A stretch of 64,000 nt of DNA from an uncultured Candidatus Saccharibacteria bacterium. Lineage in GTDB: Bacteria > Patescibacteriota > Minisyncoccia > Phycocordibacterales > UBA9988. The translations under genes were made by a program, and so were the position numbers. Of this stretch, positions 2,896-63,982 are shown piece by piece. Positions within the stretch are counted from its first letter, which is position 1; each line of letters starts with the position of its first letter. The notes under the pieces are model-generated. The model saw nothing but the letters and a program-made list of their open reading frames with translations, ran no database searches and was not told the origin of the DNA. Location: positions 16,457-80,456 of the forward strand of contig CAYNXC010000002.1 in assembly GCA_964401135.1 (NCBI GenBank), written 5' to 3'.

Positions 2896-5463
<2,568 letters not shown>

Positions 5464-7784: not shown

Positions 7785-7859
<75 letters not shown>

Positions 7860-7944
7860 CGATGAAAAACGCCAATACTACATTGGCGTTTTTCTGTTTT
7901 TATGGCACTATGGGAGTCGTCAGGAGAGAGATAGAAAATGTCTT

Positions 7945-8018
7945 GCCGGGGTAGCTCAGTCGGTTAGAGCGTGGGACTCATAAACCCAAGGTCGTGAGTT
8001 CGATTCTCACCCCCGGCA
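7945..8018 (+). tRNA. tRNA-Met or tRNA-Ile2 (anticodon CAT, elongator type).
   Basis: Acceptor stem GCCGGGG/CCCCGGC and anticodon loop ACTCATAAA. The G1-C72 pair rules out an initiator. Confidence 0.75.
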
Positions 8019-8065
8019 CGAGGTTCCTGTATATTCTTTGAGCTTTTTGCTAGGATGATGTCGTT

Positions 8066-8142
8066 GCAGATGTAGCTCAACTGGTTAGAGCACCCGCCTG
8101 TCACGCGGGAGGTTGCGGGTTCAAGTCCCGTCGTCTGCGCCA
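8066..8142 (+). tRNA. tRNA-Asp (GTC).
   Basis: Near-identical to canonical bacterial tRNA-Asp. Anticodon loop CCTGTCACG, CCA encoded. Confidence 0.85.
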
Positions 8143-8223
8143 GTTCTTAATGTTTAAGGACAGCCCTAAAACATTCACCAGAGGCGAATGTTCGGGCGGA
8201 CAATTTCCATAGGAAACTGTTTT

Positions 8224-8296
8224 GCCGTTGTAGCTCAGTTGGTAGAGCAACTCCATGGTAAGGAGTAGGTCGTCGGTTCAATTCCGACCAACGGCT
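8224..8296 (+). tRNA. tRNA-Thr (GGT).
   Basis: Acceptor GCCGTTG/CAACGGC, anticodon stem ACTCC/GGAGT and loop ATGGTAA. Confidence 0.8.
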
Positions 8297-8308
8297 CATA
8301 ACAATAAG

Positions 8309-8381
8309 GCCACCTTAGCTCAGTTGGCAGAGCGGCGCATTCGTAACGCGCAGGTCCCCAGTCCGATTCTGGGAGGTGGCT
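8309..8381 (+). tRNA. tRNA-Thr (CGT).
   Basis: Anticodon arm GCGCATTCGTAACGCGC resembles E. coli thrW. T-arm is CCCAG/CTGGG. Confidence 0.75.
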
Positions 8382-57262: not shown

Positions 57263-57486
57263 GTTAGTATATAATGGCCTCAATGTCTATAGGGTATCAA
57301 CTAATGTTCAAACGGCGATGAGCTAGAGGGATATGTCTGGTGCTCGAGAGCCGCTTGAACGAAGCGGATTTTTTTACCCCAGCGACAGAAGACTTTCTTT
57401 GAAAACTGAATAGCAGGTAACATCTGTAAAGAGAATTAGAATTGTAAGAGAAAGATGATGTAAAGATTTCCTAATAGGAAATGGCG

Positions 57487-60468
<2,982 letters not shown>

Positions 60469-60530
60469 TCCTATTAGGAAACCTCTACATCATTTATCGT
60501 TCTCTTCACTCTGATCTTCTGTATTTTGTT

Positions 60531-60628
60531 CTGGTGGTTTGGTGGAGGGGTCACACCCGGCTCCATTCCGAACCCGGCAGTTAAGCCCTCTAGCGCCGAT
60601 GATACTCGTAAGGGGAAAGTAGGTGACC
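60531..60628 (+). rRNA. rrf: 5S ribosomal RNA.
   Basis: Helix I CTGGTGG/CCGCCAG, and CCATTCCGAACCCGGCAGTTAAGCCC conserved loop C/helix III sequence. Confidence 0.85.
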
Positions 60629-60668
60629 GCCAGAACAAAGTTCAGAAGATCTGCTATACTTATATAAT

Positions 60669-61438: not shown

Positions 61439-62575
61439 GTGACGACTCTGACACAATTTTTTGGGCGCGTACGCATTGATTGGGTCCTCTTCTGCGCCGT
61501 GCTCCCGCTCCTTGCCGCTGGGCTGGTAACAATGGAGTCGTTTGAGAGTGGAGCGGATTACTTTTTTGTGCGGCAATTAGTGTGGGTACTCATTTCAGTC
61601 GCAACATTCCTTTTCGTGAGTGCGGTAGACTGGCGTTTTTTGAAGCGCAGCGGCGTGTTGACAGGACTATTTATTGCGATGGCGCTTGTGCTCCTTGCCC
61701 TTTTTGGCCTGGCGCACACGGTGCGTGGCGTGCAGAGTTGGCTCATCTTTGGCGGGGTCTCTTTTCAACCGGCTGATTTTGCGAAGCTTATCTTAATTAT
61801 CCTTCTCGCAAAATATTTTTCTCGTCGACATATTGAGATCGCCAATGTCCGCCATATCCTAGTCTCTGGTGTGTACGCATTTATCTTTTTTATACTCGTC
61901 TTTCTTCAGCCAGATTTTGGCTCTGCGATGATTATTTTTGCCATCTGGTTGGGTATGGTACTGGTGTCGGGGATTAGTAAACGGCACTTACTTATTGTGT
62001 TTCTGATTGGAGTGGCGACATTTCTCTTCGCGTGGACGAGCGTTTTGGAGGATTATCAAAAGGCGCGTATAGAAACTTTCTTAGACCCACTCTCCGATAT
62101 CCGCGGCTCCGGCTACAATGTGTACCAGAGTATGATTGCCGTTGGGTCGGGTCAGCTGGTGGGAAAGGGAGTTGGACTGGGAACACAATCTCGACTCAAG
62201 TTCTTGCCAGAGTACCAGACTGATTTTATTTTTGCAGCCTTTGCCGAGGAGTGGGGCTTTGTAGGGGTAATTATCCTTTTCTTACTCTACGGTATTGCCT
62301 TCTGGAGAATTATTGTGACTGCGCGACAGGGAGCGACTAATTTTGAGTCGTTCTATGGACTGGGTATCGCCATAATGTTTTTGAGTCACTTTGTGATCCA
62401 TGTGGGGATGAACATAGGACTCCTGCCTGTCACGGGCTTGCCGCTCCCCTTTATGAGCTACGGCGGGTCACACCTTCTGATGGAGTTTGTTGCTCTTGGT
62501 ATCCTTATGAGTCAGCGCCGCTACACGCGTGCCTTTCACCGCGACGACATGCAGAATGAGTTTGTGGGGGTATAA
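61439..62575 (+). CDS. ftsW: SEDS-family peptidoglycan glycosyltransferase (FtsW/RodA).
   Basis: 10-TM profile with the conserved C-terminal block NIGLLPVTGLPLPFMSYGGSHLLMEF. Confidence 0.9.
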   Translation: MTTLTQFFGRVRIDWVLFCAVLPLLAAGLVTMESFESGADYFFVRQLVWVLISVATFLFVSAVDWRFLKRSGVLTGLFIAMALVLLALFGLAHTVRGVQSWLIFGGVSFQPADFAKLILIILLAKYFSRRHIEIANVRHILVSGVYAFIFFILVFLQPDFGSAMIIFAIWLGMVLVSGISKRHLLIVFLIGVATFLFAWTSVLEDYQKARIETFLDPLSDIRGSGYNVYQSMIAVGSGQLVGKGVGLGTQSRLKFLPEYQTDFIFAAFAEEWGFVGVIILFLLYGIAFWRIIVTARQGATNFESFYGLGIAIMFLSHFVIHVGMNIGLLPVTGLPLPFMSYGGSHLLMEFVALGILMSQRRYTRAFHRDDMQNEFVGV

Positions 62576-62594
62576 ATAAAATATGGCTTAACTA

Positions 62595-63298
62595 TGGAGG
62601 TGAGACTTCCATCAATCAATGGATAACTCGTTATGACTCGAGTCTTCGCGTTCTTGTGCAAGCCAATCGAGAGTCTCTTGATAAAATCGTTCAGGCGTCT
62701 CAAACCATTGAGAAAGAAAGGATGTATCAACAACTTTTATACGACCATTATCATATGCACCGTCCTTCTTAGATAAATAATCTTGGAAACTTGACCAAGG
62801 GTAGGTGATAATGGAAGTCTCACTTCCATCAAAAGGATTACTATGAATGTAATGAGGGAGCCAATTAAAGTGCTCGTCAGAGATCACTGGCTTAGACTTG
62901 AACCTCCCTTGGAAAAGTGCACCGACTCGACTGTATCTCAAGTTAAAATAATTAGTATAACCAGTGCCAAGTTTTCTCATAAACTTAGTAAGCCCATATT
63001 CAACTCGTTGCCGTATCATAAGGTGGTAATGATTTGGCATTAAGCAATAAGCCATCAGCTCAACTAGTTGCCCATCCAATTCATGGCTAAGTGATGGAAG
63101 TCTCACTTCCATCAGACGGTGTGCGTTTGGATCAGTTGCTTCGGTAGAGTTAAAAAGTATTAAGGATGCAATAAAACGAGATCGATCGGCATCATCTAAA
63201 AATATGTCTCTTTTTTCAACCCCTCTATTATAGATATGAAAAATTGTGTCTGTATCATCCATGCGTCTCTATTATTGATGGAAGTCTCACTTCCATCA
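62595..63298. repeat. Cluster of four REP-like 23-nt palindromes (TGATGGAAGT-CTC-ACTTCCATCA) around and inside the RAYT gene.
   Basis: Copies lie at 62595..62614 (inverted orientation, one G·U mismatch), 62809..62831, 63092..63114 and 63276..63298. Confidence 0.85.
62612..63262 (-). CDS. REP-associated tyrosine transposase (RAYT; IS200/IS605-like Y1 HuH), with two in-frame REP palindrome insertions.
   Basis: IFHIYNRG (beta1), LMPNHYHLMI (HuH), GTGYTNYFN (Tyr region) and ALFQGRFKSK (RAYT-specific) motifs. At 216 aa it is longer than typical RAYTs (150-170 aa). Confidence 0.8.
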   Translation of the reverse strand: MDDTDTIFHIYNRGVEKRDIFLDDADRSRFIASLILFNSTEATDPNAHRLMEVRLPSLSHELDGQLVELMAYCLMPNHYHLMIRQRVEYGLTKFMRKLGTGYTNYFNLRYSRVGALFQGRFKSKPVISDEHFNWLPHYIHSNPFDGSETSIITYPWSSFQDYLSKKDGAYDNGRIKVVDTSFLSQWFETPERFYQETLDWLAQEREDSSHNELSID

Positions 63299-63388
63299 GA
63301 GTGAGGTGAATAGGATAGATGATGCTGCCACACGCGGGCCTTCCACCGCGACGACATGCAGAATGAGTTTGTAGGGGTGTGATCAGGA

Positions 63389-63982
63389 TTACTTGCAGGG
63401 CATACCCCAGGTGACTGTTCTATCCTTAGCATTTGTGGATGAGTTATCTTCTGGATTATAATCATACTTCTTACCATCACAGAGAATCACCCCATCAGAC
63501 CCTTCAGACGGGTTTATCATCTTTTCTAGTTTAAATACAATCATATAACATGCGCCGTTTGGACAATAGTTACCCGATGAGTATTGTGAATAATATGCGT
63601 AGATAAAATTATTACCCGTATCATTAGTAGGAGGATTCTTACTAGAGACAGCTGTATTTATTGGATCAGTAGGAAGTTTCGGAAGATATTTTGACAAATT
63701 ACTCTGCAATGAGTCCCATTCTGCAGGCACATTGCTTTTCAGCCAGCCGCTGCTGATGGTAACATGTGGATAATGCCCATTATCAGCACGATATAATTCT
63801 AACGCATTCATTATCTGTCTCACCTCCTGAAGTCTTTTTGTATCCCTCGCCTTCTTTCTCGCATCATCCACACTCACCAATACAATAGACGAAAGTACCC
63901 CAATGATGCCAATCACGACCAAGAGTTCTATGAGGGTAAAACCCGTCTTACGGGACGGGCCCCATACATTTACATGCGCCAT
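63389..63982 (-). CDS. Type II secretion/type IV pilus major pseudopilin-like protein (GspG/PulG-type).
   Basis: RKTGFTLIELLVVIGIIGVLSSIVLVSVDDARKKARDTKRLQEVRQIMNALELYRADNGHYP matches the prepilin leader plus the conserved GspG alpha-helix. Confidence 0.75.
   Translation of the reverse strand: MAHVNVWGPSRKTGFTLIELLVVIGIIGVLSSIVLVSVDDARKKARDTKRLQEVRQIMNALELYRADNGHYPHVTISSGWLKSNVPAEWDSLQSNLSKYLPKLPTDPINTAVSSKNPPTNDTGNNFIYAYYSQYSSGNYCPNGACYMIVFKLEKMINPSEGSDGVILCDGKKYDYNPEDNSSTNAKDRTVTWGMPCK

Follow-up and report, generated by a model that had tools for sequence, protein, structure and literature searches.

A Y1 transposase cassette bracketed by two copies of the rodA 3′ end in Patescibacteria, and its probable movement between lineages as a block

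In the window, that is, the whole stretch of 64,000 nucleotides analyzed here, rodA is still complete with a transposase cassette inside its last 60 bases, because two slightly different copies of its terminus bracket the cassette. We refer to the translated terminus as copy A and to the untranslated, displaced terminus as copy B. On balance, the comparison of sequences between relatives makes it probable that the arrangement A-cassette-B enters a genome by recombination in the rodA 3′ end, whereby the incoming DNA would supply a replacement terminus and displace the old one, with later conversion between the copies. The duplication appears to be neither a target duplication made by the transposase nor the relic of a paralogue, and the arrangement may be viewed as a variant of the known icd/e14/icdC type, here without an integrase.

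The duplicated rodA terminus and the cassette

The intact rodA gene (61,439–62,575, forward strand), assigned from the list of open reading frames, Pfam and NCBIfam, encodes a SEDS peptidoglycan polymerase of 378 aa. Its product matches FTSW_RODA_SPOVE of Pfam (E = 3.9e-91) and scores 352 bits against the NCBIfam model TIGR02210 rodA_shape (cut-off 337), with the FtsW model under its cut-off; by these profile matches, the protein is RodA and not FtsW. Copy A comprises the last 19 codons and the TAA of rodA (62,517–62,575, forward strand; 51-nt core 62,525–62,575), and copy B lies on the same strand at 63,324–63,382 (core 63,332–63,382, stop TGA). The original prediction had described a duplicate of about 51 bp at these core positions with five differences, all silent. 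Its coordinates and sequences are correct, and the length is right for the core, but the flanking direct repeat as a whole is slightly longer, totaling 59–60 nt with its 3′ limit exactly at the stop codon.

The five differences, at repeat positions 6, 12, 42, 48 and 50 of the core, are CGT/CGG, TTT/TTC, GTG/GTA, GTA/GTG and TAA/TGA, and both cores read as TRAFHRDDMQNEFVGV-stop. A repeat search aligned 62,517–62,571 with 63,324–63,378 (55 nt, 91%), and a stretch of 29 nt is identical in A and B (62,537–62,565 = 63,344–63,372). Just 5′ of the core, the rodA-frame codons are CGC CGC TAC in A and TGC TGC CAC in B, which adds three more differences, all non-synonymous. BLAST comparison of the left and right cassette flanks yielded E = 8e-18, with 0 matches expected from shuffled sequences, and by this measure a chance origin of the A/B match is excluded. 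The probability that five of five differences are silent under random mutation is 2e-4 to 8e-4. Purifying selection on both copies at some time, as had been proposed, is the right type of explanation: both would derive from a real gene end under such selection, which would account for A and B differing only synonymously in the core.

An in-frame TGA (63,320–63,322) lies directly 5′ of copy B. Translation of copy B was considered and rejected on account of this upstream stop and of the sole in-frame start, which would give an 8-residue peptide. Searching the window by tblastn, we found no SEDS similarity except in the last 17 residues. The native right-hand neighbor of rodA is a convergent gene for a type IV pilin-like protein (63,389–63,982, reverse strand, 197 aa; Pfam N_methyl and T2SSG), which adjoins the rodA end in all relatives too. 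RNA folds revealed a local stem, GGGGTGTG/CATACCCC, that links copy B, at its end, with the pilin gene's 3′ end and spans the two stop codons (63,374–63,408).

The cassette between the copies, confirmed here as bracketed by duplicate rodA ends, is AT-rich, ~750 bp long, and contains one Y1 transposase gene and four copies of a palindrome. The gene (62,612–63,262, reverse strand, 216 aa) encodes a Y1/HUH transposase, IS200-like and RAYT-like, with 32.6 bits against Pfam PF01797 (Y1_Tnp; cut-off 23) and 35 bits against the NCBIfam model REP_Tyr_transpos (NF047646), under the RayT equivalog cut-off of 80. Among 14 homologues (alignment A1), no variation occurs in the HUH motif (H78-Y-H80) or at Y138 (YIHxNP). 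Searched by sequence, the PDB returned no match to the transposase, and a search of viral contigs with the transposase alignment found nothing. Between A and B there is no tyrosine or serine integrase, the Y1 transposase being the only domain-bearing ORF.

The 21-nt palindrome GATGGAAGTCTCACTTCCATC occurs at 62,593, 62,810, 63,093 and 63,277, with 0 copies outside the cassette within the 64-kb window. REP1 (62,583–62,613, forward strand), composed of a 5′ flank, ATGGCTTAAC, and the palindrome TATGGAGGTGAGACTTCCATC with a GAG loop, overlaps the transposase stop codon; the same unit also stands 3′ of the rodA stop in L022, L024, L025 and L092. The repeat search placed two palindromes within the transposase gene (62,810–62,830 and 63,093–63,113, both forward strand), whose minus strands encode DGSETSI and MEVRLPS, respectively, and REP2 (63,277–63,297, forward strand) 5′ of the transposase start. 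The loops of the flanking palindromes at 62,593 and 63,277 have opposite orientation. Sequence comparison delimits a purine-rich, fast-evolving spacer from REP2 to copy B (63,298–63,323), which holds the in-frame TGA.

Relatives and signs of transfer

The A-cassette-B block is present in three lineages, and their closest relatives are without it. Besides the lineage of the window (W), these are lineage X (L022 and L147/L152), whose RodA is 88% identical to that of the window, and lineage V, Candidatus Vogelbacteria (L024, L025, L092 and L148–L151), with a RodA 80–81% identical. In lineage V, A and B are accompanied by a third remnant, C, with part of an additional REP; the flanking REP units there both have the same orientation, and the well-conserved copy B of this lineage does not adjoin the pilin gene. 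A metagenome scan with the tail pattern returned seven stretches, all from the known lineages, plus the rearranged L146. The cassette-free relatives L021, L160, L159 and L158 each have, at the orthologous locus, a single SEDS gene, with the rodA stop 0–6 nt from the convergent pilin stop. The 3′ end of copy B and its 32-nt flank are collinear with the native rodA end and flank of L159 (85% over 89 nt), and copy B occupies the position of the native rodA end, abutting the convergent pilin gene.

We compared W and X at four-fold sites and found a divergence of 0.24 (CI 0.14–0.34) for the transposase vs 0.64 for the rodA body, 0.52 for GT4 and 0.63 for Bac_transf; the corresponding Nei-Gojobori dS is 0.59 for the transposase vs 1.4 to >2 for host genes. 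The contrast between 0.24 and 0.52–0.64 indicates that descent was not purely vertical, and pure vertical inheritance with losses was disfavored for this reason. Cassette GC3 is 0.33–0.40 irrespective of host GC3 (0.43–0.73), and the GC profile dips across the cassette. W–X identity rises from 0.70–0.80 in the rodA body to 0.93–0.95 in the A tail, with alignment lost right after B; in the spacer from REP2 to B it is ~0.6–0.7, and this spacer is barely alignable with lineage V. Between X and the cassette-free L159, nucleotide identity is 94% over the rodA body and collapses over the last ~85 nt, and the imported segment in X also takes in pilin genes. The left limit of block-type sequence falls inside the tail in V, at about −85 in X, and at −69 or beyond (at least −69) in W.

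The two kinds of tail also carry different markers. Cassette-linked tails (all B and most A copies) have CAR (Gln) and CGT/CGG, in place of which CAC (His) and CGC stand in each of the five native tails; copy A of lineage V retains CGC. Copy A of the window bears CGT and CAG (Gln), which are absent from native tails, and W and X have AGT CAG and GGT in common upstream of the repeat. The prediction that a His tail marks an empty site was borne out twice. Together, the low transposase divergence and the block-specific markers in both copies suggest that the block probably moves between lineages, via recombination in the conserved rodA end; this reading of transfer draws on three lineages and one locus.

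Polarized with ten other tail copies, one of the five A/B differences arose in the translated copy A and two are specific to copy B. The GTA/GTG and TAA/TGA variants also occur as native rodA ends in cassette-free relatives, and the W-specific GAC and CAG are found in A and B alike. As a separate observation, the presence of the Gln marker in both A and B is explained at least as simply by the duplication of one tail as by two alleles. Among near-identical V strains, four of eight SNPs over 2 kb lie in the 51-nt A tail, and two match B. The B copies of X and V differ at 1 of 48 nt and their A copies at 9 of 48; 54% of four-fold sites differ between the X and V transposase genes. On these comparisons, neither conversion from A nor neutral decay would explain the similarity of the X and V copies, which may reflect selection acting directly on B or an additional exchange of tails. 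In native tails, the 17-codon segment ranks third of 368 for low synonymous divergence, with a third-position identity of 0.71 vs a mean of 0.49, so that the similarity stems in part from the locus and not from the cassette.

Homologues of the transposase in L153, L156, L113 and L064 are flanked by cognate, co-varying palindromes. L153–L155 contain a 56%-identical cassette within pilD, together with a relic pilD 5′ fragment; the flanking repeat there has mostly synonymous differences over 72–94 nt and, with a length of 72–125 nt, reaches the start-codon region. In L153, an unduplicated leader of 171 nt lies between the intact pilD copy and the cassette. L156 has a 66%-related cassette in an intergenic position beside pilD, with no duplication. 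L113 (a 33% homologue) was considered as a third example and rejected because its 124-nt flanking direct repeat consists of REP doublets and not of host coding DNA.

Origin of the duplication

In the reading that we favor, the cassette and the surrounding rodA-end sequences would act as one block, A-cassette-B, derived from a donor with the cassette directly 3′ of its rodA stop codon. Entry would take place by recombination inside the highly conserved rodA 3′ end, with no integrase; the incoming terminus, contiguous with the cassette, would complete rodA, and one copy of the terminus would remain downstream. The first event most likely combined one homologous crossover in rodA with one illegitimate, microhomology-type joint, which we would place about 60 nt 5′ of the stop. 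Later, A and B would be kept similar by gene conversion over short tracts and by recombination across lineages, and unequal A × B recombination could delete or duplicate the cassette. Insertion directly 3′ of a stop codon is plausible given solo REPs in L023, directly 3′ of the rodA TAA, and in L029, another contig of the Vogelbacteria genome, 3′ of a different gene's stop. The donor state itself (an intact transposase cassette directly 3′ of the rodA stop, with no B) was seen in none of the genomes. At the B junction, six of eight positions match (GCTGCCAC vs GCCGCTAC), for which a decayed duplication could stand in place of microhomology.

We consider it unlikely that a single ancient insertion duplicated a target of ~60 nt (by long target-site, replication or template-switch duplication) and was followed by vertical descent, concerted evolution and A × B losses. 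The position of the cassette exactly at the junction of A and B fits such an event, as do the Gln and CGT markers common to both copies, expected from one tail, and the demonstrable A/B conversion; W, X and V have homologous sequence in the spacer from REP2 to B and at B's left edge, which points to one origin. A staggered cut, however, leaves unexplained why the limit of the repeat coincides exactly with the stop codon in rodA and with the start-codon region in pilD, and Y1/HUH elements (IS200/IS605, RAYT) make no target duplication; we know of no transposase that produces duplications of 60–125 nt. The independent pilD cassette also has a long flanking repeat, but the 171 nt of unduplicated leader in L153 separate the intact copy from the cassette, and vertical descent is at odds with the W–X divergence of the transposase (0.24 vs 0.52–0.64). 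The long target duplication named in the original prediction is therefore unlikely in the transposase sense, given a repeat of 59–60 nt with its limit exactly at the stop codon, a left limit of the shared segment that varies among lineages, and the whole A side in lineage X, which is foreign when set against a cassette-free relative of 94% identity.

A further proposal, which concerns maintenance only and fits any origin, is that B is kept because its DNA itself has a role where the convergent rodA and pilin genes meet, with the duplication separating two overlapping functions. Candidates would be a 3′ stem-loop or terminator of the pilin transcript, a promoter or leader of the transposase, or a partner in antisense to the end of the rodA mRNA. 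In its favor are the 1/48 nt difference between the X and V copies despite large neutral divergence, and the native tails, where synonymous divergence is lower than anywhere else in the gene; in lineage V, however, the conserved B does not adjoin the pilin gene. The stem between the rodA and pilin ends recurs in the window, L021 and L159, but involves no more of B than its final 8 nt. For both strands of the B/pilin junction, RNA folding gave z-scores that were not significant (−0.6 to +1.3), so a structured RNA in B is not supported, and a scan of copy B for promoter- or terminator-like sites was empty. We regard such a function as quite improbable.

Slightly less probable still is a site-specific module, in which the cassette carries an att-like rodA end and the Y1 transposase or a host recombinase integrates and excises it at an identical core, as for e14. 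The 29-nt identical core in A and B would suit this, but a fixed crossover core common to all integrations was not found, the block limits differing in V, X and W. The architecture recalls icd/icdC in that the intact gene reads into the element, at whose far end a C-terminal fragment lies; against this, the region between A and B encodes no tyrosine or serine integrase, and HUH enzymes use hairpin-proximal ssDNA sites, not duplex cores of 50 nt. Close relatives have empty sites and the cassette is younger than its hosts, but the left limit of the import varies, lying upstream of the repeat in X, where the import includes pilin genes. Excision polymorphism is absent from the 13 assemblies of the window strain, and no presence/absence polymorphism was seen within its strain cluster.

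The original prediction had also entertained copy B as the leftover terminus of a second SEDS paralogue (tandem ftsW and rodA) whose remainder was replaced by the cassette. Its sole support is that B retains the reading frame and stop codon. The position of B at the native rodA end next to the pilin stop rules out such a lost paralogue, to which we leave next to no probability: the one SEDS gene abuts the pilin gene in four cassette-free relatives, B is collinear with the native end of that sole rodA, no SEDS similarity exists 5′ of B (the last 17 residues being all that tblastn detects), and lineage-specific substitutions are common to A and B. Least credible of all is an assembly artefact of the repeated end, a worry for which no supporting evidence was found and which is dispelled by the 13 independent metagenome assemblies that have the structure in common, the A-to-B spacing of 807 nt and the five differences being identical in contigs from 13 sequencing runs (SRR25608323 and SRR27197497 among them), and by homologous structures of other lineages in JGI, ENA and NCBI assemblies.

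Comparison with known systems and wider meaning

The closest architectural likeness is to icd of E. coli, where insertion of prophage e14 (and of phage 21) leaves the C-terminal fragment icdC; the differences of icd from icdC are mostly synonymous or conservative, and when the two recombine the element is lost and a chimeric gene results (PMC13626634; Hill et al. 1989 as cited there). In both cases the element sits in the 3′ end of a conserved gene, the element side supplies the last codons, and a C-terminal fragment is displaced. Prophage e14 measures 15 kb and has both a site-specific integrase and a defined att core, whereas the cassette here, of ~750 bp, offers no more than hairpins and a Y1/HUH transposase. 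The repeat at the rodA locus is 60 nt, and the limits of import vary by lineage, pointing to homologous or illegitimate recombination.

IS200/IS605 elements insert 3′ of a 4–5-nt target without duplicating it and occur in several copies. The cassette resembles them in its Y1 HUH transposase, its hairpin-containing ends and its small size, but is present as a single copy in the window, flanked by a 59–60-nt direct repeat of host coding DNA. Target-site duplications made by transposases (2–14 bp, from a staggered cut, unrelated to gene ends) are likewise unlike this repeat ending at a stop. In the homology-facilitated illegitimate recombination of natural transformation, one homologous anchor is combined with one microhomology joint, and the proposed entry shares this pairing of one homologous with one arbitrary junction. 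Known cases, however, usually delete recipient DNA and do not duplicate it, and the process is invoked here by extension; to our knowledge, Patescibacteria offer no experimental system for it.

REP/RAYT systems (PMC2817692, PMC3116915 and PMC5581495) consist of one Y1/HUH transposase gene flanked by short palindromes, classically inverted relative to each other, with solo copies elsewhere, and are mostly inherited with the host. The window cassette is likewise a Y1/HUH gene flanked by cognate palindromes, with one solo copy each in L023 and L029. It departs from them in a transposase under the RayT equivalog cut-off (35 vs 80 bits), in a palindrome that is very sparse, with none else in 64 kb, in a transposase gene that itself contains, in frame, one or two cognate palindromes, and in the duplicated host coding sequence that brackets it. 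We know of no described RAYT bracketed in this way.

If correct, the favored reading implies that, in a reduced CPR genome, a minimal cassette free of an integrase can sit harmlessly in the terminus of an essential cell-wall gene, and that such a block can cross lineages by recombination in a conserved gene end beside a hypervariable pilin locus. For annotation, short in-frame fragments of gene ends near Y1 transposase genes would be displaced termini, not remains of paralogues. A bolder proposal, which we hold only tentatively and think unlikely, is that this Y1/REP family of Patescibacteria is a mobile module carrying a host gene terminus (the rodA 3′ end, or the pilD 5′ end in L153) as homology arm or attachment sequence for entry without inactivation, with B conserved by selection on spread or on precise exit. 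Such a gene-end-carrying module would amount to a homing-like strategy, not described for HUH/RAYT elements; a gene end serving spread would represent a new mode of target choice for elements of this type and open a route to studying how uncultivated Patescibacteria take up and recombine DNA.

Palindromes related to that of the cassette are common across Patescibacteria. A contig scan with the pattern ATGGAAGTNNNACTTCCAT was too loose, giving 120 matches that were mostly chance palindromes in unrelated phyla; the useful ones were L092, L029 and several REP-like sites in Patescibacteria.

The duplicated rodA terminus and its locus in relatives

The SEDS ORF at 61439-62575 (378 aa; Pfam PF01098, E = 3.9e-91) encodes RodA, scoring above the NCBI RodA cut-off and under that for FtsW. 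Its last 17 codons with the stop, 51 nt at 62525-62575, are repeated at 63332-63382; the five differences between the two are all silent, and both the coordinates and the sequences of this duplicated SEDS gene end are as the original prediction described them. The repeat reaches three codons further upstream (from 62517 and 63324; 55 nt at 91% in a repeat search), where the translated copy, A, reads CGC CGC TAC and the downstream copy, B, TGC TGC CAC, adding three differences that are all non-synonymous. An in-frame TGA (63320-63322) stands directly upstream of B, which is therefore not readable from upstream. A chance match was excluded (BLAST E = 8e-18; 0 matches expected from shuffles), and five of five silent differences would have a probability of 2e-4 to 8e-4 under unconstrained mutation.

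Cassette-free relatives carry a single rodA (L021 and L160, with RodA 94% identical; L159, 88%; L158, 73%), whose stop lies 0-6 nt from that of a convergent pilin gene, and L023 (RodA 91%) has a solo palindrome only, directly after the rodA TAA. The cassette and both copies are present in two further lineages, X (L022, L147/L152; RodA 88%, transposase 87%) and V (L024, L025, L092, L148-L151; RodA 80-81%, transposase about 71%). The window comes from a member of the Patescibacteria/Paceibacteria; among named genomes, Candidatus Vogelbacteria RIFOXYD1_FULL_51_18 is the nearest that shares the locus. Beyond copy B, lineage V has part of a third REP (REP3) and then, adjoining the pilin gene, a 20-nt remnant (C) of a third tail, the expected product of unequal A/B exchange followed by decay.

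Window copy B, taken with 32 nt to its right, aligns collinearly with the native end of rodA in L159 and the flank beyond it (85% over 89 nt), so B occupies the place of a real gene end. Furthermore, tblastn detected no SEDS similarity in the 64-kb window besides rodA and its repeated end, and no relative examined, cassette-bearing or cassette-free, has a second SEDS gene at the rodA locus. These results rule out that B is the relic of a second, deleted SEDS paralogue, as had been proposed; of the two arrangements sought in relatives, the single rodA without a cassette was found and tandem paralogues were not. An assembly artefact was likewise ruled out by contigs from 13 different sequencing runs, which encode the exact RodA and transposase side by side and in every case carry A and B 807 nt apart, with the five differences unchanged.

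Several further features of the neighborhood were recorded. On the V-like contig L146 (5480-5760, minus strand), a HicB-like small gene replaces the transposase body, copy A and rodA; still present are the opening codons of the transposase gene, REP2, copy B, partial REP3, remnant C and the pilin gene. A pilin gene (63389-63982) lies beside the window's cassette, and cassettes of this family repeatedly adjoin type IV pilin or prepilin-peptidase genes (L153, L156, L157); the pilin genes that follow rodA are hypervariable among close relatives, with 46% aa identity shared by X and the window's lineage, W, and with differing numbers of genes. The 23S-5S rRNA genes (57477-60635) lie just upstream of a 255-aa gene and rodA, and the 23S gene (57477-60473) matches its model end to end, without large insertions; the corresponding region of the V contig L024, upstream of the rodA neighborhood, contains LAGLIDADG homing-endonuclease ORFs (457-972 and 1221-1712). 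The 64-kb window holds no 16S rRNA gene, and five tRNA genes cluster within 600 nt (7785-8381).

The Y1 cassette and known systems

The cassette between A and B encodes a 216-aa Y1/HUH transposase (62612-63262, minus strand). The protein passes the Pfam threshold for PF01797, and among NCBIfam models it fits RayT best, though its 35 bits fall well short of the 80 required. With a GC of 0.38-0.43, vs 0.47-0.52 in rodA, the cassette is AT-rich, and it includes four copies of the 21-nt palindrome GATGGAAGTCTCACTTCCATC, of which two flank the transposase gene (REP1 after A, REP2 before B) and two lie inside it, in frame; the rest of the 64-kb window has no copy.

Intragenic palindromes like those at 62810-62830 and 63093-63113 recur in the transposase genes of L022, L151, L153, L113 and L101, one or two per gene, in frame and matching the flanking palindrome. 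Their positions are conserved, about +145-170 and +425-450 nt, and the two sites use different reading frames (MEVRLPS and DGSETSI). An 'EV[RGS]L' motif is kept at the first position in 46-48% homologues, and in a 56% homologue all four copies have changed together to TGACTGGAGTTCGACTTCAGTCA. The 3-nt loop is inverted between lineages (CTC vs GAG; 63093-63113 vs L022 6653-6671 and L151), switching the encoded residue between Arg and Ser while the stem stays, and it thus appears that the hairpin, not the peptide, is what is conserved. Many Patescibacteria genomes contain extended palindromes built on ATGGAAGT-NNN-ACTTCCAT (L026-L102, various Patescibacteria/Saccharibacteria contigs), with lineage-specific outer stems and loops; in some cases several contigs of the same MAG carry them. 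This suggests a REP-like family widespread in CPR.

A canonical IS200/IS605 insertion leaves no duplication and is a misfit for a cassette flanked by a duplicated rodA end. The cassette resembles a REP/RAYT unit: its transposase has the HUH and Tyr motifs, cognate palindromes flank the gene, and solo copies occur, if rarely. It differs in that the transposase scores under the RayT equivalog cut-off and in the sparseness of the palindrome. In the icd/e14/icdC arrangement of E. coli, the gene runs on into the prophage element, whose far end is bordered by a C-terminal fragment; icd and icdC differ conservatively, and e14 is lost when the two copies recombine (PMC13626634). The rodA locus is similar in that the gene runs into the insert side, with a displaced C-terminal fragment beyond and conservative differences, but it has no integrase and no fixed core. 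The feature is a gene-end-restoring insertion tied to a Y1/REP cassette in Patescibacteria, kin of a known arrangement in a new form.

Silent differences and probable movement of the block

We polarized the five A/B differences with the other tail copies. TTT is a change in the translated copy, A, and both states of GTA/GTG and TAA/TGA exist in native rodA ends (GTA TAG/TAA in L021 and L023; GTG TGA in L159). That leaves CGG and GTA as the changes found in the window's B alone (two silent out of two, probability about 0.05). The silent-only pattern thus mostly records B's history as a real gene end together with constraint on A, and does not reflect selection on B in the window strain; the suggestion that purifying selection had acted on both copies at some time is an explanation of the right kind. 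Concerted evolution of the copies can also be seen, as in the W-specific GAC and CAG present in both. Two V strains differ at eight positions in a 2-kb region, four of them inside the 51-nt A tail and two of these matching B. A third V strain, L025, lacks 24 nt (8 residues, in frame) of the RodA tail (about 5085-5095); the deletion lies between short direct repeats (CATCC..CA), in sequence otherwise identical to its relatives over 2.5 kb.

We consider it somewhat probable that B represents a displaced rodA terminus that is not translated, with A, the cassette and B behaving as one recombining block; the displaced terminus is the best-supported part of this reading, and transfer of the block between lineages is moderately supported. 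That the block is merely old and vertically inherited is contradicted by four-fold degenerate sites, at which W and X differ by 0.24 (95% CI 0.14-0.34) in the transposase gene vs 0.64 in the rodA body, 0.52 in the neighboring glycosyltransferase and 0.63 in Bac_transf (Nei-Gojobori dS 0.59 vs 1.4 to >2 for host genes). GC3 is steady in the transposase gene (0.33-0.40) and ranges from 0.43 to 0.73 in host rodA. Along the alignment, W and X are 0.70-0.80 identical over the rodA body; identity rises sharply to 0.93-0.95 at the A tail and REP1, runs at 0.85-0.97 across the cassette and 0.86 in B, and is lost directly after B. X and the cassette-free L159 share 94% nt identity in the rodA body, which collapses in the last ~85 nt of X's rodA, and homology returns only 1.9 kb on, in the conserved N-terminal region of a pilin gene.

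An alignment of 12 tail copies, five of them native (A2), provided markers of the block. Every cassette-linked tail, A and B alike, has CAR (Gln), and all five native tails have CAC (His); the prediction that the His-tailed P0006 and P0002 mark empty sites was borne out on look-up (2/2). CGT or CGG occurs in all B copies and in A of W and X, vs CGC in native tails and in A of V. Upstream of the repeat, W and X share AGT CAG and GGT, the native alleles being AGC CAA and GGC. The left edge of block-type sequence varies: in V it falls within the tail, in X at about -85. This argues for homologous recombination over site-specific crossover.

A parallel case in pilD and anomalies of tail DNA

In L153-L155, a cassette with transposase P0128 (56% identical) and a different palindrome of its own sits within the 5' region of pilD, the prepilin peptidase gene. 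The original pilD start survives upstream as a relic of about 40 codons that stops at this cassette; the pilD gene downstream is intact, and its duplicated N-terminal stretch (94 nt at 79%, or 72 nt at 86%) has four synonymous changes and one Val/Ile change in the well-aligned part. The relic (MEFWLFLLSFLLGTVVGSFLNVLVLRYNTGR...) adjoins an amine-oxidase gene, and the direct repeat spans L153 3706-3799 and 4679-4772, recurring in L154 and L155. A 66%-related cassette is intergenic beside pilD, without duplication (L156/L157), so the family shows both 'donor-like' and 'gene-end duplicated' states. Tentatively, a donor may have carried the cassette just outside a conserved gene, and entry would then have required one homologous crossover within that gene and one illegitimate joint. 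The two pilD states, the rodA repeat ending exactly at the stop codon, and solo REPs directly after stop codons (L023, L029) favor such an origin.

The B copies of X and V differ at 1/48 nt, vs 9/48 for their A copies, and conversion from A cannot produce this near-identity; the transposase genes of X and V differ at 54% of four-fold sites, and the spacer next to B is barely alignable. Native tails have a third-position conservation of 0.71 over the last ~30 codons, vs a gene mean of 0.49, and the lowest synonymous divergence in rodA. Either rodA-end DNA serves an additional function where the two genes converge, or exchange between lineages affects tails more often than anything else. The rodA 3' end of the cassette-free L021, L023, L159 and L158 has markedly reduced third-position divergence (L021 vs L159: last 96 nt 0.92-0.98 identical, vs about 0.77 elsewhere), which suggests recombination or a second constraint at the rodA/pilin junction. 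RNA folds and a promoter/terminator scan revealed no significant RNA structure, promoter or terminator in copy B. A local stem pairs the last 8 nt of the rodA end with the pilin end in the window, L021 and L159.
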